Source: a phage. From it: DNA of 64,000 nt. Positions 45,491 to 61,246 of this stretch are shown one piece after another. Under the pieces are notes generated by a model, which saw only the letters and a program-made list of their open reading frames with translations, searched no databases and had not been told where the DNA came from. The stretch lies in sequence record PZ379177.1, one strand, 5' to 3'. Numbering within the stretch: position 1 is the stretch's first letter; the number at the start of each line of letters is the position of its first letter. The position numbers were made by a program, and so were the translations under genes.

Positions 45491-46573
45491 CTATTTTATG
45501 CCACCTGCACGACGATTTATCATGTCAAGTTGATTCTCAATATAAGGCATGACGATTGCTTCAACAAAAGCAGTCCAACCTTTCTTGCCTTCCCCTTTCC
45601 GGTGACAGTCGTGAGCGCAACCGAAAACGAATTCATGTTCAGCGCCAGGGATTGGGCCGCGAAAATAAGCGCCGTATGGGTCGCCGTTGGTGTGTTCTTC
45701 ACCCCAAGGACAGATGATGCGGCATTTGCCTGACATGTTTTCAACAACATCGCCATCGGACCCTTCACCCATCTTATTGCGAGCAAGGATTTGCTGGGCT
45801 ATTTTATACCAAACAGCATCATATTTGTATTCGTCAACGTCAATTTGAATTTCACGCTTTTGCGGCATAACGACGTGGAAACCGAAGGCTTGGCAAATCT
45901 CTTCGATTGTGTAGCGCAAAGAATAGTCTGCATGAACAAGTCGGCAGCGGAACGGGTCGCCGTTCTCATCGACATATTTATAGGGGCCGTCGTGAGTCAC
46001 ACGCTTGTTGTTGATGCACCCAGGAACACGGCCCACGCGCGTTACGTCTTTAATCGTGTTGTCGCCGCCCTTCTTGAGTACCATGTTAACGAAAGACCCA
46101 AGGAACGCTTTGAACTGAATAAGATGGTCAATCGGTTCTTTAAAGAAGTACCAAAGCTGGTGGTTGTTCGGTGAAGTCTCGACGATGACAGTCGGCTTCA
46201 GTCGCTCGAAAAAGAATTCCAAATCTAAATCGCCTTTGGACCCTTTACCGTGACCGATGTCGTCGACCATCATCGCCATACCGTGACCAAAGGCCGACTC
46301 TGTACGCCAGTATCGCATCTCACCCGTCTTTGGGTTGGGAGACTTACGCATCGAACTGATGCAAGCATAGCCGTTTTGGTGCTGCATGAGCGGCTTGCCC
46401 AACTTCCAAGGCTTAGGCCAGAAGCTGCTGTTGATCTTCTTGCCGCGTTCGTCGGTCTGTACCGTTGCTTCAGGAGCAAACACCGTCATGACGCGCTCAT
46501 CTTCTGGAATGCCTCTTTGGAGTTCTGTTAAAAACTCTTCGATTATTTTTGCTTCTTCTCTTAAACTAGCCAT
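45491..46573 (-). CDS. PrimPol-like (archaeo-eukaryotic-type) primase with C-terminal Cys/His cluster
   Basis: 360 aa; acidic MVDDIGHG, then ETSPNNHQLWYFF (SxxxxH motif), and C-terminal CPWGEEH...CAHDCH. Confidence 0.65.
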   Translation of the reverse strand: MASLREEAKIIEEFLTELQRGIPEDERVMTVFAPEATVQTDERGKKINSSFWPKPWKLGKPLMQHQNGYACISSMRKSPNPKTGEMRYWRTESAFGHGMAMMVDDIGHGKGSKGDLDLEFFFERLKPTVIVETSPNNHQLWYFFKEPIDHLIQFKAFLGSFVNMVLKKGGDNTIKDVTRVGRVPGCINNKRVTHDGPYKYVDENGDPFRCRLVHADYSLRYTIEEICQAFGFHVVMPQKREIQIDVDEYKYDAVWYKIAQQILARNKMGEGSDGDVVENMSGKCRIICPWGEEHTNGDPYGAYFRGPIPGAEHEFVFGCAHDCHRKGEGKKGWTAFVEAIVMPYIENQLDMINRRAGGIK

Positions 46574-48397: not shown

Positions 48398-49243
48398 GTG
48401 AATATGGCCGAAGCAATCAAAGTATTATCTAAAGAAGAAAAACAAGCAGCCGCAGCAGAACGTCGTCGCGTGGCTGAAGAAAAACGCCTGGCTAAAAAGA
48501 AAGAAGCCGAAGAAAAACGCCAGAAGCGTGAGCAGGAAAAACAAGCCAAGCGTGAAGAAGCTGCGCTGAAACGCAAGCAAGCTGCTGATGAGAAGGCTCA
48601 GAAGCGTGCTGAAGAAGCAGCTAAGAAAGCTAAAGAGCGTGCAGAAAAGGCTGCCGCTAAGAAGGCAGAGCGTGAAGCCGCTAAAGCCGCTAAAGAAATT
48701 GAAAAGGCAAAGGCGAAAGAAGAAGCCAAGCGCCTGAAAGCTGAGCAGGCTGCGGCCAAGAAAGCTGAGCGTGATCAAGCCCGTGCTGCAGCGAAGGCCG
48801 AAAAAGAGAAGGCAAAAGAAGAAGCTAAAGCGAAACGCAAGGCAGAGCGTGAAGCTGCTAAGATTGCGGCGAAAGAAGCTGCAGAACAGCAGAAAGAACA
48901 GCGTAAGAAAGAAGCTGAAGAACGTCGCAAAGCCATCGCAGAACGTAAGGCTGCTAAAAAGGCAAACGGTCAGCGTCGTGCAAAAGCCACTCACTTCATC
49001 TACACTGGCAATGGCCTGAGCCAGCCGCAAGAGCATTCCACCCGTGGACGCGTTCTGGCGGCGATCAAAGAAGGCGAAGTTGGCGTGGCGCAGTCTATCG
49101 ATGAGCTGGGCGAAAAAGTTAAAGATCAACTGTTTGGCGCTTCCGTTCGCTCCTACCTGAGCAAGCTGGAAGAGATGGGCCACATCGAGTTTGTCGATGT
49201 TGAATCCAATGACGATGCCGAAGACGGTGATCAAGCGGAATAA
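48398..49243 (+). CDS. Lys/Ala/Glu-rich charged helical protein with globular C-terminal domain
   Basis: 281 aa; about 190 aa of KAE low-complexity (AEEKRQKREQEKQAKREEAALKRKQAADEKAQKRAEEAAKKAKERAEKAAAKK...) followed by a roughly 80-aa non-repetitive tail. Confidence 0.6.
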   Translation: MNMAEAIKVLSKEEKQAAAAERRRVAEEKRLAKKKEAEEKRQKREQEKQAKREEAALKRKQAADEKAQKRAEEAAKKAKERAEKAAAKKAEREAAKAAKEIEKAKAKEEAKRLKAEQAAAKKAERDQARAAAKAEKEKAKEEAKAKRKAEREAAKIAAKEAAEQQKEQRKKEAEERRKAIAERKAAKKANGQRRAKATHFIYTGNGLSQPQEHSTRGRVLAAIKEGEVGVAQSIDELGEKVKDQLFGASVRSYLSKLEEMGHIEFVDVESNDDAEDGDQAE

Positions 49244-49271: not shown

Positions 49272-49298
49272 GACCCACACTTGTTGTGGGTCTTTTTT
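49272..49298 (+). terminator. Rho-independent terminator
   Basis: Hairpin GACCCACA-CTTGT-TGTGGGTC followed by TTTTTT, directly after the KAE-rich gene. Confidence 0.7.
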
Positions 49299-49377
49299 CG
49301 TCTGTACTAAATAGAAATGACTTGTTGCTGTAAAATAATTTAGCTATTATACTTCTCATATCACCCACAAAGGACAA

Positions 49378-50373
49378 ATGAACATGAAACAACCTGTAAT
49401 GATTATCGGCGGCGGCTTGGCAGGACTTATTACCGCGTGTCACTTCCCGAACTCTATTGTGTACGAAGCAGGGGAGCGAGCGCCACAGCACAAGGCGCTG
49501 CTACGCTTTCGCGGCGAAGAAGTAAGCCGTATTACCGGAATACCTTTTAAGGCCGTGACAGTTGACAAGGCTGTGTATTTTCGCGGTAACTACTACCACG
49601 ACCATTGCCCAATTAACCTTGCAAATATGTATTCCATGAAGGTCACCAATCAGTTTGGCAGCCGTTCAATCATGAAGCTTAAGACTGCAACGCGTTATAT
49701 TGCGCCTGATGACTTTTATGATCAGCTTGTCGACAAACTGGGTGACCGCATATTCTTTAATACTCCGGTTGATACTCTTTGCGGCTATAGCGAGACGCCA
49801 ATCATCAACACGTCGCCGCTGCCAGTAATGATGAAGCTTGCTGGGATTGATCAAAAGCTTGATTTCTCATTTGATAAAGCAAACATTCGCGTTTACCGCT
49901 TTAAGATTAAACGTAAGTGTGATTTGTATCAGACAATTTACTTCCCTGACTACTCCGTCAGAACTTACCGCGCATCAATTACTGGTGACACACTTATCAT
50001 TGAAACCATTCCTTTGGTCAGCGTGAGTGAAGCTGCAGTTGAAGCCGCTGGCGGCATCACTCGTTACCGTGACATGAAGCTGCGCGCAGAAGTCGACGAA
50101 GTGTTGACAGCCTTTGGCCTCTCATGGAGTGACATCGCTCTTGAAGAAGTTGAAAAGGTCGACCAGAAATATGGCAAGATTGTCGACATTCCGAAAGACT
50201 TGCGACACGCCCTACTCCTGCAGCTGACCATGGATTTAAACGTGTTTAGTGTCGGTCGATTTGCTACCTGGCGCAACATTTTGCTTGATGACGTCGCTCA
50301 TGACCTTGTTGAAGTTGAAAAACTCATCAAAGCAAATAACTATCAAAAATTTGCTTATATTGCTAATAAATAA
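49378..50373 (+). CDS. FAD/NAD(P)-binding Rossmann-fold oxidoreductase-like protein
   Basis: 331 aa; N-terminal dinucleotide-binding motif VMIIGGGLAGLITA (GxGxxG). Confidence 0.55.
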   Translation: MNMKQPVMIIGGGLAGLITACHFPNSIVYEAGERAPQHKALLRFRGEEVSRITGIPFKAVTVDKAVYFRGNYYHDHCPINLANMYSMKVTNQFGSRSIMKLKTATRYIAPDDFYDQLVDKLGDRIFFNTPVDTLCGYSETPIINTSPLPVMMKLAGIDQKLDFSFDKANIRVYRFKIKRKCDLYQTIYFPDYSVRTYRASITGDTLIIETIPLVSVSEAAVEAAGGITRYRDMKLRAEVDEVLTAFGLSWSDIALEEVEKVDQKYGKIVDIPKDLRHALLLQLTMDLNVFSVGRFATWRNILLDDVAHDLVEVEKLIKANNYQKFAYIANK

Positions 50374-50438
50374 TTTGCTTTCTGCTTCAATGGGCGTATA
50401 CTTTAATCATTGAAGCAGAACTCATAGAGGAAACGAAA

Positions 50439-50885
50439 ATGAAACGAATCACTGGAATCGCGCTTGCCGCGACTGCTATTCTCGGCACCATGTATATGGA
50501 AGCGACTGAAGCCGCTGTCCGTACTTCCGATTCAATCGCTGTTTACGATTGTGAAGCGATGGACGGTAAGACCGCAGCAACGACTGGTGCAAAGATTACC
50601 ACTTACATCGGTGTGAATGAGCAAGAAGGTCTGAATATTCAGATTCAGGGATTCACGGGAAAAGGTGTCAACCGGACTCCGTGGATGCAACGTTTCACTT
50701 TCGTCCAGCCTCGTTCAACTGGCGGCTTTATCAACCTGATTGGTGAAAACCGTTCTGGTGCAGAAATCTTTACATCAATGAGTTCTAATAATGAACCAAA
50801 GAAAAGTTTTCAGTTGCTTTATAACGCACAATTCGTTTATCATTGCGTTTTCTCTGGTGATCAGCAACTGGTAAATTACCGTTAA
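50439..50885 (+). CDS. Secreted protein
   Basis: 148 aa; signal-peptide-like N-terminus MKRITGIALAATAILGTMYMEATEA. Confidence 0.5.
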   Translation: MKRITGIALAATAILGTMYMEATEAAVRTSDSIAVYDCEAMDGKTAATTGAKITTYIGVNEQEGLNIQIQGFTGKGVNRTPWMQRFTFVQPRSTGGFINLIGENRSGAEIFTSMSSNNEPKKSFQLLYNAQFVYHCVFSGDQQLVNYR

Positions 50886-50898
50886 TAGGATAATTAAA

Positions 50899-51672
50899 AT
50901 GAAAGTTGAATTAGTAAGATACACCCAAGATGCACTTGAACTTCTGCTGGAAACAAAGAACACGCGCATGACTGGCAAGCCTGTCTCTGAGATGACAGAG
51001 TCAGAGAAACAAGAGCACTGGCGATATATGCTTGACACCATCAAGTCACCTTTTGACTTTGTGGACTATATCTTTGACATCACCGACGTGTCTAAGAACA
51101 TGACCCATCAAATGGTGCGCACCCGCACAGGCGCATATCAAGAGCGCACCAGTCGCGCTCAGGAGTCGTCAGCGTTTGATGCGATTCGTCCGAAGGCTTT
51201 TGAACATCCTGAAGGGTCCACAAGCGTGCTTGGCGAAAAGTGGGATGATGCCATGGCGACTATTGACGCAATCTATCAAGAGTTGCGCGCGGCGGGTGCA
51301 GAAATCCAAGATGCGCGTGGCGTCCTGCCTTCGAATATGCAAACGCACATCATGGCCAAGTTCAACTTGCGCACGCTGCAACAAATGGCATCCAACCGCC
51401 TCTGCACGCGCACTCAAGGCGAGTACCAAAACGTATTTCGCGCAATGGTTGCTGAAGTTCTTAATGTGCACCCGTGGGCAAACCCTCTCTTACAGCCGCT
51501 GTGCATCGGTATGGGTAAGTGCGCATTCCCTCGTCACGGTAAGGCCCATTGCCCTTGGTATCGTGATTGGATGGATACCACTGCACAGCAAGAAGAATTA
51601 CGCATCCAGTTTTGGGATGCCGCGCCAATCACCAATAATCCAGTTGCCAAAGATGGAGTATCAAAAGGATGA
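50899..51672 (+). CDS. ThyX-like flavin-dependent thymidylate synthase homolog with variant motif
   Basis: 257 aa; THQMVRTRTGAYQERTS aligns with the ThyX signature RHR-x7/8-S, but His is replaced by Thr (RTR). Confidence 0.55.
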   Translation: MKVELVRYTQDALELLLETKNTRMTGKPVSEMTESEKQEHWRYMLDTIKSPFDFVDYIFDITDVSKNMTHQMVRTRTGAYQERTSRAQESSAFDAIRPKAFEHPEGSTSVLGEKWDDAMATIDAIYQELRAAGAEIQDARGVLPSNMQTHIMAKFNLRTLQQMASNRLCTRTQGEYQNVFRAMVAEVLNVHPWANPLLQPLCIGMGKCAFPRHGKAHCPWYRDWMDTTAQQEELRIQFWDAAPITNNPVAKDGVSKG

Positions 51673-52517
51673 AAACCTTAAACATTTTTGATTTAGACGG
51701 CACCATATTTAATGACGCTTGGCGTTTACAATACATCGATAAAGAAAACAAGAACTATGATGGCTATCACGAGCGATTGACTCATGATGATCACTTTCCT
51801 AATATAGCTTCGCAAGTAGGCTGGTCACTAAGTGAAGGCGCTGTTGAGTTCTGGACAGCGCGACCTAACAAGTGGCGTGCGACTACAACTAAGAAGTTGG
51901 AAGATACTTTCGGATGTATGCCTGGCGTAATCATACGCATGCGCGGCGATGATGATTTGCGTAGCGCGGCAGCATTGAAAGCAGATTACATGCGTCGACT
52001 CCCTTCAGGCTATGATCAGGTGTATGTGTACGACGACCGCGCAGACGTTTTGGATGCCATGATCATTGAAGCGCGTCCAAAGACTGGCGTCACGTTCCGA
52101 TTCTACCTTTGCACCAATGGTAGCTTCACGGAATACCACACACTTTTTAACCGCTCTAATAAAGCGAAAGTGCCTACTACGCAGGACACGCTGGGAGATT
52201 CGTTAGAAGCAACCAAGCCTGCCACCGCCGCCGATATTCTTGATGCGATGGCCGCGACCTTCCGTGAGCGCAACGCCGTTTATGGCGATAACGCTGTGAT
52301 GGTAGGTCAGGTTATGCAGGTGCTTTTCCCTAATGGCGTAACGTTGAAAACGCCGGAAGACTACCACATGTGGCATCTGTTCGAGCTTAAGATTGTCAAG
52401 CTTACACGCTTTGCAATCAGCGGCCTGAAGCACGAAGACTCTATACACGATGATGGTGTTTACAGCGCCATGTGTGAACGTCTTGTCAACACCCATAATA
52501 TTAATTTCAATAAATAG
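51669..52517 (+). CDS. HAD-superfamily phosphatase-like protein with C-terminal extension
   Basis: 282 aa; N-terminal motif I IFDLDGTIF (DxDGT); start overlaps the upstream stop. Confidence 0.55.
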   Translation: MKTLNIFDLDGTIFNDAWRLQYIDKENKNYDGYHERLTHDDHFPNIASQVGWSLSEGAVEFWTARPNKWRATTTKKLEDTFGCMPGVIIRMRGDDDLRSAAALKADYMRRLPSGYDQVYVYDDRADVLDAMIIEARPKTGVTFRFYLCTNGSFTEYHTLFNRSNKAKVPTTQDTLGDSLEATKPATAADILDAMAATFRERNAVYGDNAVMVGQVMQVLFPNGVTLKTPEDYHMWHLFELKIVKLTRFAISGLKHEDSIHDDGVYSAMCERLVNTHNINFNK

Positions 52518-52581
52518 TTTACTTGTGCGTTTCGATGAGTTATATTTATCTCATCGAAACGAAGTCCAAAAGGATAAATAA

Positions 52582-53265
52582 ATGAAAAAAGTAATTGTTG
52601 TAACTGGCTGCAATTCCGGTCTTGGTAAATCCATTTTTGACACCCTTGGTGCTTACGGTCATGAAGTTGTCGGTATTGATTTGGAGAACGGCTATGACAT
52701 CCGTAACGCGAAACAGATGAAAGAGCTTCTCTCTCAATACGACGTAGAAGGCTTGATCAACTGCGCTGGCGTCAACTCCAACAACTGGTTCGAAGATGTT
52801 AACTACGAAGAGTTCAATCGCGTTATGCACACCAACGCCTTCTCTTTCGTCAACACGACTCAGGCCGCGCTGAAAAGTCTTATTGACAACAAAGGTTTTG
52901 TGATCAACATCGTTTCCAACGCTGCGCATATTCCTATGACGTCCAGCTTGTGTTATAATGCATCCAAGGCTGCTGCGCTTATGATTAGCAAGCAGATGGC
53001 TCACGAGCTTACGCCTAAGTACGGAATCACGGTATTCTCTATTAGTCCTAACAAGCTACGTGGTACTGGCATGTCCAAACAGATTGAAGATGCTGTTTGC
53101 GCGACTCGCGGCTGGACTCCTGAGTATGCTGCTGAATACCAGAAAAAGGCGTTGATGAACGGATTGGAGACTGAGCCGCAAGTAATTGCTGACTTCATTC
53201 GCCATATCTTAATTACGGGCGCATGGCGCTTTATGTCTGGTACTGATATTCCATTTGGGAAATAA
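52582..53265 (+). CDS. Short-chain dehydrogenase/reductase (SDR)
   Basis: 227 aa; cofactor motif VIVVTGCNSGLGKSI (TGxxxGxG) and catalytic YNASKAA (YxxxK). Confidence 0.75.
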   Translation: MKKVIVVTGCNSGLGKSIFDTLGAYGHEVVGIDLENGYDIRNAKQMKELLSQYDVEGLINCAGVNSNNWFEDVNYEEFNRVMHTNAFSFVNTTQAALKSLIDNKGFVINIVSNAAHIPMTSSLCYNASKAAALMISKQMAHELTPKYGITVFSISPNKLRGTGMSKQIEDAVCATRGWTPEYAAEYQKKALMNGLETEPQVIADFIRHILITGAWRFMSGTDIPFGK

Positions 53266-53268
53266 ATC

Positions 53269-53439
53269 ATGACTATCAAAGTTGTTGTAGAAGTGATTGG
53301 CGACGTAGCAGAAGTGAAGATTGATCAAGAAGGTGTTGGATTTGAAGTAATAAGAATCGAAAACGCAAAGATTAACCACGAGCGCGTCGGTGCCATTGAG
53401 ACTTATTCCATCGAAGGCAACACAGTAATTAATCAATAA
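53269..53439 (+). CDS. Small ORF (56 aa)
   Basis: ATG immediately after the SDR stop; product MTIKVVVEVIGDVAEVKIDQEGVGFEVIRIENAKINHERVGAIETYSIEGNTVINQ. Confidence 0.3.
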   Translation: MTIKVVVEVIGDVAEVKIDQEGVGFEVIRIENAKINHERVGAIETYSIEGNTVINQ

Positions 53440-53459
53440 TATTTAATTAAGGAAACAAA

Positions 53460-54011
53460 ATGCCACATTTTAAAATTGAACAAATCGCCCTGTCAATTCC
53501 AGGTGCTCAGCGCGCACAGAATTTCCTGGCTAAAATCGGCCTGACAGAATGGTTCCATGATCACGTTGTTGCTACTGGTCGCGTATTTGAAGCTGATGTC
53601 TTTAAGGGTCAGCGCGGCGATTGCACCAACGAAGCTGACTTGCGCTTCAACTATCAGGCTGGCAACGGCACCGATGGCGGCGCTGGTAAGCCTCTTGAGC
53701 TTGAAATTCTTGACTATACAAAAGGTTGCAACTGGATTCACGAAAACATCGAATACATCGATGCGCACGACAATCAGGTTAGCCATCTTGGTATGCACGT
53801 GACTGCCGCTGAACTTGCTGAATGGCGCAAGTTCTTTAAAGAAGAAGGCATTCAGGTTGCGCAGGAAGTCGTAACCGACTCTCACACCAACCCAAATATT
53901 GCTGGTCAGCGTCGTTACAACTATGTGATCTTTGATACGCGTGAGATCATCGGCGTTGATTTGAAGTTTATCGTGCGCTTGAATCAAGACGGTACTCCGT
54001 ACACTGTATAA
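53460..54011 (+). CDS. Hypothetical enzyme, possibly glyoxalase/VOC-like fold
   Basis: 183 aa; His/Glu-containing beta-alpha segments (LELEILDY, SHLGMHV). Assignment weak. Confidence 0.4.
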   Translation: MPHFKIEQIALSIPGAQRAQNFLAKIGLTEWFHDHVVATGRVFEADVFKGQRGDCTNEADLRFNYQAGNGTDGGAGKPLELEILDYTKGCNWIHENIEYIDAHDNQVSHLGMHVTAAELAEWRKFFKEEGIQVAQEVVTDSHTNPNIAGQRRYNYVIFDTREIIGVDLKFIVRLNQDGTPYTV

Positions 54012-54027
54012 CGAATCGTGAATCTGT

Positions 54028-54052
54028 GGCCGTCCTAATGGGCGGCCTTTTT
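54028..54052 (+). terminator. Putative rho-independent terminator
   Basis: Hairpin GGCCGTCC-TAAT-GGGCGGCC followed by TTTTT. Confidence 0.55.
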
Positions 54053-59508: not shown

Positions 59509-59772
59509 ATGGTACGCATCCTTGAACGTTACAAAAATGAAGCTACTGGCGCAATCGCTTTCAAACGTCTTTTGGTCAAAGAAATTGACGGGATGTTCCG
59601 CGTTGTTAAAGAGTTTGATTATGGCAACGGTGCTGGGGTGAATACCGTTATTATGCCTGGCATCAAGGCGTATAAAACCTTGAAAGGCGCTGAGAAGGCT
59701 TTGGCGGCTTGGAAGCCTGAACGTTATCAAATGACCCGTGTTGAAGGGCTAATGCAAGAAGGTAAAATATGA
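59509..59772 (+). CDS. Hypothetical protein
   Basis: 87-aa ORF. Confidence 0.5.
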   Translation: MVRILERYKNEATGAIAFKRLLVKEIDGMFRVVKEFDYGNGAGVNTVIMPGIKAYKTLKGAEKALAAWKPERYQMTRVEGLMQEGKI

Positions 59773-60326
59773 GCAATATTAATTGGGAAGATGATTTGCC
59801 GCAGGTCGCTCCTGAGAGCATTCAAGAGCGCCTTGCGCGCTTAGTATCTGAACTGGCAGAACGCCAAGAAGCTTTGACAGAGCTTGAAGATGAAGCTGAT
59901 ATGCAAAAGCAGCGAATCAGTGAAATCAAAACTGTTCTGCTTCCTGGCGTTATGGATGAGCTTGGCGTGTCCGAAATCAAGCTTGAGGACAAGACCAAAA
60001 TCAAGGTCGAGTCCAAGGTGAATGCTTCAATCAAGAAAGAAAACGAATTAAAAGTTTTCGATTGGCTTGTCAACAACGGTTACGGCGGCTTGATCAAGTC
60101 CAGCGTCACGGCTGAGTTCGGTCGCGAAGAAATCGAACAGGCGCAAGAGATTGTTGCCGCGCTGCGTGAAGATGGTGTTGAAGTCACATTGAAACAAGGC
60201 GTTCATTCTGCTACACTGAAGTCATTTGTAAAAGAACAGCTGGAAGCAGGCAATCCAGTTAGTGAAGATATTAGCGTTTTTGAATACAAAGAAGCTAAAA
60301 TAACCTTGCCTAAAAGCAAAAAGTAA
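59769..60326 (+). CDS. Hypothetical coiled-coil protein
   Basis: 185-aa ORF; acidic coiled-coil N-terminus. Confidence 0.5.
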   Translation: MSNINWEDDLPQVAPESIQERLARLVSELAERQEALTELEDEADMQKQRISEIKTVLLPGVMDELGVSEIKLEDKTKIKVESKVNASIKKENELKVFDWLVNNGYGGLIKSSVTAEFGREEIEQAQEIVAALREDGVEVTLKQGVHSATLKSFVKEQLEAGNPVSEDISVFEYKEAKITLPKSKK

Positions 60327-60385
60327 TTTAACCTTTATCTTGAAATCAGGTTGCCACGAAACTTGATACTATAGGAAAATATCAA

Positions 60386-61246
60386 ATGTCTAAGAAAGAA
60401 ACTACCGAAGTTGCAGTGAAAAACACCCAGATGTCCGCTATGGCTGATTTTGTCGACATGACCGATTTTGGCGCTGGTTTTGAAGGTGCCGATGCCGATG
60501 CATATGCCATTCCTTTTATCGTCGTGCTGCAGAAGATGTCTCCTATGGTCGACGAAGATGATCCAAAACACGTTCCTGGCGCAAAAGCTGGCATGCTTTA
60601 CAACACCGTTACTGGTGAGTTGTATGACGGCAAGAAAGGCGTGCAGATCATTCCTTGCGCATTCAAACGTACCTTCATTCTTTGGGGCGGTCGCGAGTCC
60701 GACGATAAAGGCTTTAAAGGTGAATTTACCAAAGAGCACGTTGATGCAGAAGTAGCGGCAGGCCGCGCTGTTGAGATCAACGGTAAAGTATTTGTGCCGG
60801 ACGAAAACGGCAAGGTGCACGAGAAGAAGTCTCCTTACTACGCAGATACACGTAACCACTTCGTAATTCTGTTGAACGAAGAAACGGGTGAATTTGGTAG
60901 CGCAATGCTGTCTTTGACTTCTTCCATGATCAAGCCGTCTCGCATGCTGATGACCGCTCTGCAGCAGAAGAAAGTTCAGACTCCGCAAGGTCTGAAAACG
61001 CCGCCGACCTTTATGAACATCGTTCGCATGGGTACTGCATCCCAGTCCAAAGACGGCAACACCTGGTCCGTTCTTAAGTTTGAGCTGGAAGGTCTGGTGC
61101 AGGACAAAGGTCTGTACGAAGTCGCCAAGGCATTCCACAACGACGTAGTTGGCGGCAACGTTAACATCGACCGCAGCAAGCAAGAAGAAGCAAGTGGCGC
61201 TGCTGGCCCTGTCAATGAAACTCCGACCGACGCAGAAGAGTTTTAA
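60386..61246 (+). CDS. Putative ssDNA-binding/annealing protein with acidic C-terminal tail
   Basis: 286 aa; ends ...NETPTDAEEF, an acidic tail with terminal Phe as in SSB-type proteins; sits in the replication module. Confidence 0.45.
   Translation: MSKKETTEVAVKNTQMSAMADFVDMTDFGAGFEGADADAYAIPFIVVLQKMSPMVDEDDPKHVPGAKAGMLYNTVTGELYDGKKGVQIIPCAFKRTFILWGGRESDDKGFKGEFTKEHVDAEVAAGRAVEINGKVFVPDENGKVHEKKSPYYADTRNHFVILLNEETGEFGSAMLSLTSSMIKPSRMLMTALQQKKVQTPQGLKTPPTFMNIVRMGTASQSKDGNTWSVLKFELEGLVQDKGLYEVAKAFHNDVVGGNVNIDRSKQEEASGAAGPVNETPTDAEEF

Follow-up and report, generated by a model that had tools for sequence, protein, structure and literature searches.

A ThyX-centred enzyme cluster of a Wifcevirus as a candidate thymidine-hypermodification module of PB1-like phages

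Among the closest described counterparts of the locus analysed here are the thymidine-hypermodification pathways of phages SP10, PhiW-14, ViI and M6 (Lee et al. 2018 PNAS; PMC8989533), in which a thymidylate-synthase-type enzyme and tailoring enzymes are encoded in a cluster beside the replication genes, and in which T is partially replaced by bulky, restriction-blocking adducts (PMC8989533). These pathways start with a ThyA-family dUMP hydroxymethylase, followed by a 5-hydroxymethyluracil (5-hmU) DNA kinase, aGPT-Pplase, pyridoxal-phosphate (PLP) enzymes and radical S-adenosylmethionine (SAM) enzymes that act on DNA. A gene cluster of comparable position but different content occupies positions 49378-54011 of a 64,000-nucleotide stretch of sequence record PZ379177.1 (the whole of this stretch is referred to below as the window), which comes from a Wifcevirus, an E. 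coli myovirus. None of the enzymes listed above is encoded there; the cluster contains instead a ThyX-family enzyme, a second flavoprotein, a HAD phosphatase, a DUF6378-like domain, a short-chain dehydrogenase/reductase (SDR) and a protein resembling the vicinal oxygen chelate (VOC) superfamily. An earlier, sequence-only reading of the window had suggested that these genes may make a modified nucleotide or a cofactor, pointing to phages that place thymidylate-synthase-family enzymes next to tailoring enzymes. An enzyme of that general kind is indeed central to the cluster, while the precedent invoked concerns the ThyA family and not ThyX. Production of a modified nucleotide or base is supported as the best hypothesis by the co-occurrence of the genes, the atypical ThyX, the modified T of Pbunavirus and the resistance of Wifcevirus to restriction-modification (RM) systems, and we propose, with a probability of about 0.55, that the cluster is a thymidine-hypermodification module of the PB1-like supergroup, present in Wifcevirus in an extended version in which the SDR and the VOC-like protein would tailor the adduct. 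The restriction-blocking outcome is here proposed from the genes, and we infer the link between genes and adduct as well as every chemical step discussed below. If correct, the pathway would be new, i.e. a hypermodification cluster of new enzymatic make-up.

Wifcevirus is the sister group of Pbunavirus, whose members F8 and 14-1, formerly thought to be unmodified, have DNA that enzymes with TG in their site fail to cut, with a T:A ratio below 1 and with about a quarter of T replaced by novel nucleosides (PMC12191111). [quoted passage not shown] A 2026 preprint independently reports that nanopore sequencing of Pbunavirus gives poor reads as long as the DNA is native and not amplified. Members of this genus (F8, 14-1, PB1) share with the window a syntenic series of genes for the flavoprotein, the ThyX-like enzyme, the HAD/DUF6378 protein, DnaQ and DnaE, and the first three of these products, which are conserved, co-distributed and atypical, form the only enzyme set shared by the two genera in which pyrimidine-C5 chemistry is central. 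Our literature search found no paper linking ThyX, the flavoprotein or the cluster to the modifications of either genus. The cluster provides testable candidate genes both for the orphan modification of Pbunavirus, whose phages are among the most used therapeutic phages against Pseudomonas aeruginosa and were found in 2025 to carry an unprecedented sugar-type thymidine modification without assigned genes, and for the unexplained restriction resistance of Wifcevirus.

That resistance was recorded for phages Bas98-100, which plate on EcoRI hosts with an efficiency of plating (EOP) of 0.27-0.92 (36-38 EcoRI sites by the authors' count) and on EcoRV, EcoCFT_I and EcoCFT_II hosts with an EOP of ~1, and form no plaques on EcoP1 hosts; it was left unexplained (PMC11990801). 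Wifcevirus is also insensitive to all non-RM defences tested, and its receptor is the O-antigen. The paper describing the genus holds no restriction-digest data for WFC or WFH. Avoidance of EcoRI sites is ruled out as the explanation, since GAATTC occurs in the window 17 times against 18 expected. EcoRI cuts the DNA of F8 but does not restrict Wifcevirus in vivo, so that the Wifcevirus adduct or its sequence context should differ from that of F8. A homologue of the Pbunavirus anti-END1 protein (14-1 gp88), sought in the window as indirect evidence of hypermodification, was not found. Several other sites deviate from expectation in the window: GGTCTC (BsaI/Eco31I) is absent (0 observed, 26 expected), TCTAGA (2/18), GATC (109/247) and CCWGG (81/180) are depleted, and AAGCTT is in excess (52 against 18 expected).

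Conservation of the cluster in related and unrelated phages

The distribution of the cluster was analysed in 80 IMG/VR loci encoding homologues of the flavoprotein, the open reading frames (ORFs) of which were searched with iterated profiles of each window protein. In the 46 loci that extend at least 6 kb downstream of the flavoprotein gene, counted with near-identical Wifcevirus copies left out, we found the ThyX-like enzyme in 46/46, the DUF6378-like domain in 44/46 and the HAD domain in 43/46, together with an SDR in 31/46, a VOC-like protein in 32/46, DnaQ in 44/46 and DnaE in 39/46. The gene order is constant: flavoprotein - ThyX - HAD/DUF6378 - (SDR - VOC) - DnaQ - DnaE. The core of the cluster consists of the genes for the flavoprotein (g1), the ThyX-like enzyme (g3) and the HAD/DUF6378 protein (g4), while the SDR and VOC genes form an optional pair present in some lineages only. 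Co-occurrence as a block in related phages, which had been named as a check on the sequence-only reading, is what we observe for the core, kept in constant order in 43-46 of the 46 loci. That dozens of divergent viral contigs show the same order makes a chance arrangement very unlikely.

Searches with tblastn detected g1 in 362 and the DUF6378-like domain of g4 in 364 of 50,697 phage records, with matching counts by genus (g1/DUF6378-like: Pseudomonas 292/292, Escherichia 27/27, Serratia 9/9). The Pseudomonas records with g1 are Pbunavirus; the others include Serratia, Pantoea, Xanthomonas, Burkholderia and Rhizobium phages and a Cronobacter podophage. Pbunavirus, including F8, 14-1 and Nello, has the core only and lacks the SDR, the VOC-like protein and two further small genes of the window (g2 and g5b, see below); its flavoprotein is 39-41% identical to that of the window. 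The families of the module are also present in the 42-kb genome of the Cronobacter podophage Ss1, and in a 206-kb Rhizobium phage they are scattered among dUTPase, ribonucleotide reductase (RNR) and Nudix genes, with no DnaE nearby.

An example from an unrelated phage is the Microbacterium siphovirus RikSengupta, in which a flavoprotein-like gene (gp55) is followed by genes for a HAD protein (gp56), an SDR (gp57), a VOC protein (gp58) and a DUF6378-like protein (gp59), next to DnaE, with a ThyX-like gene of 459 codons 8 kb further on. The module profiles match these proteins (SDR: 7e-64; VOC: 2e-44; DUF6378-like: 1e-31; ThyX: 3.5e-28); the relation of gp55 to g1 is seen only in hhalign (E=3e-4 over 157 columns). 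Just upstream of gp55, gp54 shows a weak match, under the cut-off (E=0.0016), to Pyr_excise (pyrimidine-dimer glycosylase of the T4 endonuclease V type), and a glycosyltransferase, gp65, is encoded after DnaE (regions L005 3757-4305 and L091 25134-26210). In this phage, the two proteins could act together with the module at the level of DNA; the window contains no homologues of the Microbacterium phage glycosyltransferase or of the Pyr_excise-like gp54, and no paralogues of the cluster genes.

The three core proteins

For the core proteins and the SDR, the sequence-only reading had listed an FAD/NAD-binding oxidoreductase-like protein, a ThyX-like protein, a HAD-like phosphatase and an SDR; all four assignments are borne out by our analyses, the first by a GxGxxG motif and a model of the FAD-enzyme fold class, the others by the matches to Thy1 (3.5e-30), HAD_PNKP (3.7e-5, with the motifs) and adh_short (1e-31) detailed below.

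The ThyX-like enzyme (g3, 50899-51672, + strand, 257 amino acids (aa)) is a divergent member of its family. Pfam Thy1 (PF02511) matches residues 5-193 over practically the entire profile (positions 2-191 of 191; E-value 3.5e-30, 105.7 bits, cut-off 24.8), while the match to the NCBIfam thyX equivalog TIGR02170 (71.3 bits) stays under the cut-off of 87.9. In the alignment with Thermotoga maritima ThyX (TmThyX) the residues Q75, R78, R80, E86, R90, R147, N163 and R174 are retained, and His53, His59, His79, Ser88 and Tyr91 (TmThyX numbering) are replaced by Ile, Phe, Thr, Thr and Ala, respectively. The ThyX signature RHRx7S(x)RY is absent: the corresponding segment reads RTRTGAYQERTSRA, so that RHR...S.RY becomes RTR...T.RA, and the N-terminal motif H-x-S/T-P-F-E-H is I-K-S-P-F-D-F. 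Compared with the known ThyX enzymes (TM0449 and M. tuberculosis ThyX), g3 has the full-length Thy1 domain and the residues that hold dUMP; unlike them, it is always paired with a g1 flavoprotein, misses the equivalog cut-off and has lost the folate histidine.

These changes are characteristic of the whole group. In the 72 ThyX sequences linked to g1, the arginines R74, R76, R86, R140, R158 and R167 are invariant (72/72), the position of His53 is Ile and that of His59 is Phe without exception (72/72 each), the position of His79 is occupied by T (57), S (11) or H (1), and that of Tyr91 by Ala or Val in 71/72. When 1.84 billion cluster representatives were searched exhaustively with HMMER, only 1764 proteins were retrieved at E<=1e-3. 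Among the 150 best of them, the residue counts at the His53 position include 95 I, 24 L, 10 V and 7 H, and the Tyr at position 91 is retained in about 6; the clade that shows the altered folate-site pattern comprises at least 150 clusters formed at 50% identity. A g1 homologue lies immediately upstream in three of four divergent representatives of this clade that were sampled, the fourth being on a 4-kb contig. Rosetta-stone fusions between g1 and ThyX were sought among the 150 representatives, and a single doubtful chimera of 277 aa (P0326) was the only one found; the long representatives are explained by inteins or N-terminal extensions. Inteins also occur in one metagenomic relative of the locus (L093, 5208-7121 and from 10263 to the end of the locus), in the ThyX-like gene and, several of them, in DnaE.

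In TmThyX, the conserved His53 forms a stack with the pterin of folate; Tyr91, to which it is hydrogen-bonded, has been proposed to act as a general acid, and mutating Tyr91 slows flavin oxidation ~1000-fold (PMC11940539). ThyX can bypass folate, free formaldehyde being used via a flavin-N5 carbinolamine (PMC8316439). As the residues holding dUMP on the flavin are retained, g3 very probably uses flavin N5 to alkylate a uracil nucleotide at C5, and its carbon donor may be other than methylenetetrahydrofolate (CH2THF); the preserved dUMP site and the rebuilt folate site together make it a plausible uracil-C5 alkylator with a different donor. We predict that the function of this large ThyX subfamily, most of it viral, differs from or goes beyond plain thymidylate synthesis. 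In another relative (L096, 11946-12718) an HNH endonuclease and a dCMP/cytidine deaminase are encoded between the module and DnaQ, and the deaminase hints at a deliberate supply of dUMP beside the ThyX-like enzyme.

The flavoprotein (g1, 49378-50373, + strand, 331 aa) belongs to phrog_4828, with 1952 homologues, mostly on phage-sized contigs, none of which carries a Pfam domain. It shows the features of FAD oxidoreductases with two dinucleotide-binding domains, i.e. an N-terminal GxGxxG, an acidic residue ending strand β2 and a Rossmann-type FAD domain, with G11, G13, G16 and E30 invariant or nearly so among homologues. Neither Pfam (E<0.1) nor NCBIfam returned a match, and neither phmmer nor a profile search identified a relative among the PDB sequences. 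A confident AlphaFold2 (AF2) model (pLDDT 87) retrieved hundreds of FAD enzymes in a fold search and places the protein in the fold class of UDP-galactopyranose mutase (UGM), protoporphyrinogen oxidase and amine oxidases, UGMs being the best matches. The annotation of the homologue in phage Mansfield as a UDP-galactopyranose mutase is nevertheless rejected: there is no match to GLF (PF03275), and in hhalign the alignment with the authentic Glf of E. coli K-12 is restricted to the Rossmann motif (21 N-terminal columns, probability 4.5%). With UGM/Glf and with the other flavoenzymes of this fold g1 has no detectable relationship at the sequence level, and it is shorter than most of them; it is a new flavoprotein family and not a UGM. 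Many of its Arg and Lys residues are invariant, which suggests that its substrate is phosphorylated or polyanionic.

The third core protein (g4, 51669-52517, + strand, 282 aa), the start codon of which overlaps the stop codon of g3 (ATGA), is composed of a HAD domain (residues ~1-150), a linker and a DUF6378-like four-helix domain (residues ~185-282). It contains FDLDGT at residues 7-12, and the columns of DxD, TxRP, K and DDxxD are nearly invariant among 50 homologues; judged by these motifs, the N-terminal half represents a HAD phosphatase of the PNKP/NT5C type whose catalytic machinery is intact. HAD_PNKP matches the window protein under its cut-off (3.7e-5, 24.3 bits against 27.6), the Pbunavirus homologue at 42 bits, and is present as a precomputed assignment on most homologues; the window protein matches phrog_4889 with an E-value of 2.6e-71. 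The label "polynucleotide kinase" carried by relatives is unjustified, since g4 has no kinase domain (neither a P-loop kinase domain nor a Walker A motif was found), the C-terminal part being the DUF6378-like domain. That domain (~95 residues) is well conserved and also occurs as a stand-alone gene of 100-110 codons. Five of 8 members of the g4 family match Pfam DUF6378 (PF19905), with E-values from 5e-5 to 0.12 and scores that all fall short of the cut-off (27.1 bits), and no match is obtained for the window copy; its model (pLDDT 90) is a four-helix bundle, for which the fold search was uninformative.

The sequence of g4 varies strongly between close relatives. The entire region 49378-54011 is 94-96% identical to that of FEC19, WFH, ECML-117 and the BASEL phages Bas98-101, and the genes neighbouring g4 are 95-100% identical, whereas g4 itself is only 56% identical to the other Wifcevirus copies, and ThyX, which diverges at its 3' end, is 87-90% identical. 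The window allele is shared by just two metagenomic proteins (P0121 and P0122, 97-99%). The segment 51669-52517 with the 3' end of g3 looks like a hot spot of localised recombination or replacement. In Pbunavirus, g4 is likewise the most divergent gene between F8 and 14-1 (81% identity, neighbouring genes ~96%). In the interval between the flavoprotein and the exonuclease of these two phages (L009 and L010) the HAD/DUF6378 gene and the small ORFs 058 and 060-063 are 78-89% identical, against 94-99% for the flanking replication genes, and two allele classes of the DUF6378-like domain exist among the Pbunavirus records. This variability fits an adduct-specifying role, or exposure to host counter-selection; as the most variable gene, g4 probably helps to decide which adduct is made, and we predict that the variable HAD/DUF6378 gene sets adduct identity.

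Proposed chemistry and competing explanations

In the pathway that we propose, the ThyX-like enzyme and its partner flavoprotein would carry out flavin-N5-mediated chemistry at C5, or at the 5-methyl, of a deoxyuridine/thymidine unit and attach a sugar-derived group instead of, or besides, a plain methyl. The HAD phosphatase would then remove a phosphate from the adduct or its precursor, and the SDR (g5) and VOC-like protein (g6) would act on the sugar moiety by oxidation, reduction or isomerisation, or would produce its donor. This tailoring would give Wifcevirus an adduct different from both Pbunavirus adducts, by which the genome would be protected from restriction. Since the SDR and VOC genes are always paired and limited to some lineages, we predict an adduct different from that of Pbunavirus for those lineages, namely the Wifcevirus, Serratia, Pantoea, Xanthomonas, Aeromonas and Krampusvirus phages, which agrees with the differing EcoRI behaviour of F8 and Wifcevirus.

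By mass calculation, the 362 Da of the F8 nucleoside fits 5-(1-deoxypentitol-1-yl)-deoxyuridine (dU) (C14H22N2O9, 362.33 Da) and the 390 Da of the 14-1 nucleoside fits 5-(C-hexosyl)-dU (C15H22N2O10, 390.35 Da), i.e. dU plus an aldose joined via C1. O-linked adducts of 5-hydroxymethyldeoxyuridine (5-hmdU) with a tetritol or a pentose have the same masses as these C-linked forms, so that mass alone leaves C- versus O-linkage undecided. Three chemistries come into consideration. In the first, C1 of an aldose phosphate would be transferred in the manner of ThyX, via a flavin N5 iminium, to uracil C5, and the exocyclic intermediate would either be reduced to an open-chain alditol (F8) or undergo ring closure to a cyclic adduct (14-1), with dephosphorylation by the HAD domain as the last step. 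In the second, a reverse-ThyX oxidation resembling that of vanillyl-alcohol oxidase would convert the thymine methyl to an exocyclic methylene that is trapped by a sugar hydroxyl; such a reaction could take place on DNA and would be compatible with the TG context. In the third, the ThyX variant would be a dUMP hydroxymethylase feeding a transferase.

We tentatively prefer the first, as an extension of the formaldehyde shunt of ThyX in which an aldose or aldose phosphate would condense with the reduced flavin N5; it is favoured by the precedent of that shunt, the lost folate histidine and the obligatory phosphatase, but is itself put forward as one possibility that may well prove wrong, and it offers no explanation for the TG selectivity. 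TrmFO and MnmG, which are folate/FAD-dependent, are precedents for flavin-iminium alkylation of uracil C5 on a polynucleotide, as a DNA-level step in TG context would need; unlike the enzymes considered here, they act on tRNA, belong to a GidA-type family and use CH2THF. In its most specific and still more doubtful form, the proposal would make g3 and g1 a new class of flavin-dependent "uracil C5 glycitylases" that transfer C1 of an aldose phosphate to dUMP or to uracil/thymine in DNA, with dephosphorylation by the HAD protein. The products would then be C-C-linked 5-(1-deoxyalditol-1-yl)- or C-glycosyl-deoxyuridines, g3 would be the first ThyX-family enzyme with a donor other than a one-carbon unit, hypermodification would proceed without a hydroxymethyl intermediate, kinase or glycosyltransferase, and the SDR and VOC-like protein of Wifcevirus would yield a third, undescribed DNA base. 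More generally, the thymidine-hypermodification proposal would, if true, reveal new enzymology for DNA hypermodification, with flavin-based attachment of a sugar to a pyrimidine, and have consequences for phage host range, nanopore sequencing and the engineering of restriction- and CRISPR-resistant DNA.

Several points weigh against assigning the cluster to thymidine hypermodification. The RM resistance of Wifcevirus could have another cause. The TG context and 25% replacement in F8 imply a sequence-selective step on DNA, and the cluster proteins have no recognisable DNA-binding or sequence-reading domain. Searches of the seven cluster proteins against Pfam, PHROGs and NCBIfam found no ThyA-type hydroxymethylase, 5-hmU DNA kinase or aGPT-Pplase, and these hallmarks of known thymidine hypermodification, like a glycosyltransferase, are absent from the cluster. 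The likeness of g1 to UGM exists at the level of fold only. Most of the 80 loci come from related phages that share the whole replication module, so that part of the synteny reflects common descent. Genes for ThyX, for HAD proteins of the nucleotidase/PNKP-like kind and for FabG-like enzymes are also found in many phages for which no modification is known.

The strongest competitor, which we regard as considerably less probable than hypermodification but as a serious alternative, is ordinary nucleotide metabolism associated with replication, accompanied by auxiliary genes, the Pbunavirus modification genes being located elsewhere. ThyX would then make dTMP, the HAD protein would be a 5'-nucleotidase or a PNKP-type 3'-phosphatase for end repair, the flavoprotein would support ThyX redox or one-carbon supply, and the SDR and VOC proteins would be auxiliary metabolic genes (AMGs). 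The Pfam matches to Thy1 and HAD_PNKP and the PHROG labels ("thymidylate synthase", "polynucleotide kinase", "FabG-like ... moron/AMG") agree with this, ThyX has kept its dUMP-binding arginines, the location within the replication module points to a role in dNTP supply, and most loci are phylogenetically related. However, the folate-stacking His53 and Tyr91 are gone throughout the clade and the thyX equivalog cut-off is missed; ThyX needs no partner flavoprotein, yet g1 is found in every locus, largely on phage-sized contigs; the same five or six families occur together in unrelated phage types; and no other candidate modification genes are known in Pbunavirus.

An improbable explanation is that the cluster makes or degrades a small molecule outside DNA (for example a cofactor such as a pterin, flavin or folate analogue, a modified free nucleotide or a host immune signal) for host takeover or counter-defence. 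A flavoprotein, a HAD phosphatase, an SDR and a VOC protein are typical small-molecule enzymes, no DNA-binding domain was found in the cluster proteins, and the insensitivity of Wifcevirus extends to all tested non-RM defences. Against this, the module is constantly tied to a uracil-C5-alkylating family and to the replicase, Pbunavirus, with only the core, demonstrably has modified thymidine, and covalent modification of the DNA is the simplest explanation for resistance in vivo to EcoRI and similar type II enzymes. A sugar-nucleotide pathway altering host surface glycans (O-antigen or lipopolysaccharide (LPS)) through a UGM-like enzyme, SDR, VOC, phosphatase and secreted protein would accord with the Mansfield annotation of g1 and its best fold matches, the signal-peptide-like N-terminus of g2 and the O-antigen receptor of Wifcevirus, but we consider it highly improbable, given that g1 lacks a Pfam GLF match and aligns with Glf over a 21-residue Rossmann motif only, that the cluster contains no glycosyltransferase or nucleotidyltransferase and the phages are virulent, and that g1 is always found beside ThyX and the replicase and not close to genes for lysis or tail proteins.

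Accessory genes, boundaries and neighbouring genes

The accessory SDR (g5, 52582-53265, + strand, 227 aa) is a classical member of its family, with a match to adh_short (1e-31, 110.4 bits, cut-off 26.6) and with the motifs TGxxxGxG (present as VTGCNSGLG) and YxxxK (as YNASK). No specific NCBIfam family matches it at its cut-off, and the best PDB relatives are FabG enzymes (~1e-12). The second accessory protein (g6, 53460-54011, + strand, 183 aa), described as VOC-like in the sequence-only reading, shows by itself a weak similarity to Glyoxalase_4 (E=0.09, 13.5 bits, under the cut-off of 27), and a PDB search with the single sequence or with a 13-member profile gave no match; the call is weak for this protein, although the family as a whole tends in that direction, 8 of its 13 members matching Glyoxalase_4 (best E-value 8.6e-6). 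Its gene adjoins the SDR gene even in Microbacterium phages.

Two further ORFs are specific to Wifcevirus. The product of g2 (50439-50885, + strand, 148 aa) has no family match in Pfam, PHROGs or NCBIfam. Its N-terminus is signal-peptide-like, in keeping with the earlier description as a secreted protein, but as a lineage-specific insertion, with homologues in 5 Wifcevirus loci only and unrelated small ORFs at the same position in Pbunavirus, it is probably outside the pathway of which it had been taken to be a part. Between the SDR and VOC genes lies g5b (53269-53439, + strand, 56 aa), which is annotated in Bas99 and Mansfield and has homologues in Wifcevirus only. It is the seventh co-oriented ORF of the + strand in the interval 49378-54011, for which six genes between a helicase and the replicase had been counted; the extent and shared orientation of the block were given correctly, and a TolA-like gene intervenes between the Dda-like helicase and the cluster, on the other side of which DnaQ and DnaE follow.

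The block is bracketed by two intrinsic-terminator-like hairpins on the + strand, one at 49272-49292 (8-bp stem with 5 GC pairs and a TTTTTT tail), which ends the TolA-like gene and marks the 5' boundary, and one at 54028-54047 (8-bp stem with 7 GC pairs, followed by a T-run), which marks the 3' boundary just before DnaQ/DnaE. The annotation of phage Mansfield has terminators at both corresponding places. With strong terminator-like hairpins at both ends, the cluster looks like one transcription unit. A weak sigma-70-like promoter match (49312-49339, + strand, 9/12 positions) upstream of g1 is tentative; promoter-like matches are not in excess in the region (13 against 9.0 +/- 3.2 in shuffled sequences).

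The TolA-like gene directly upstream of g1 (48398-49243, + strand) encodes a Lys/Glu/Ala-rich protein of 281 aa with a short globular C-terminus and no Pfam domain, which is kept upstream of g1 in 32/46 related loci and is perhaps DNA-binding or histone-like. Farther upstream, a RepB-type primase (PF16793, 1.6e-36) is encoded at 45491-46573 on the - strand, divergent from the block of helicase, modification and replicase genes. Downstream of a UvsW-like helicase, two genes at 59769-61246 (+ strand) match the recently defined families Pam3 gp33-like (DUF7307, 7e-37) and Pam3 gp34-like (4e-86), and a DUF7307 gene is also present in the distant locus L096.

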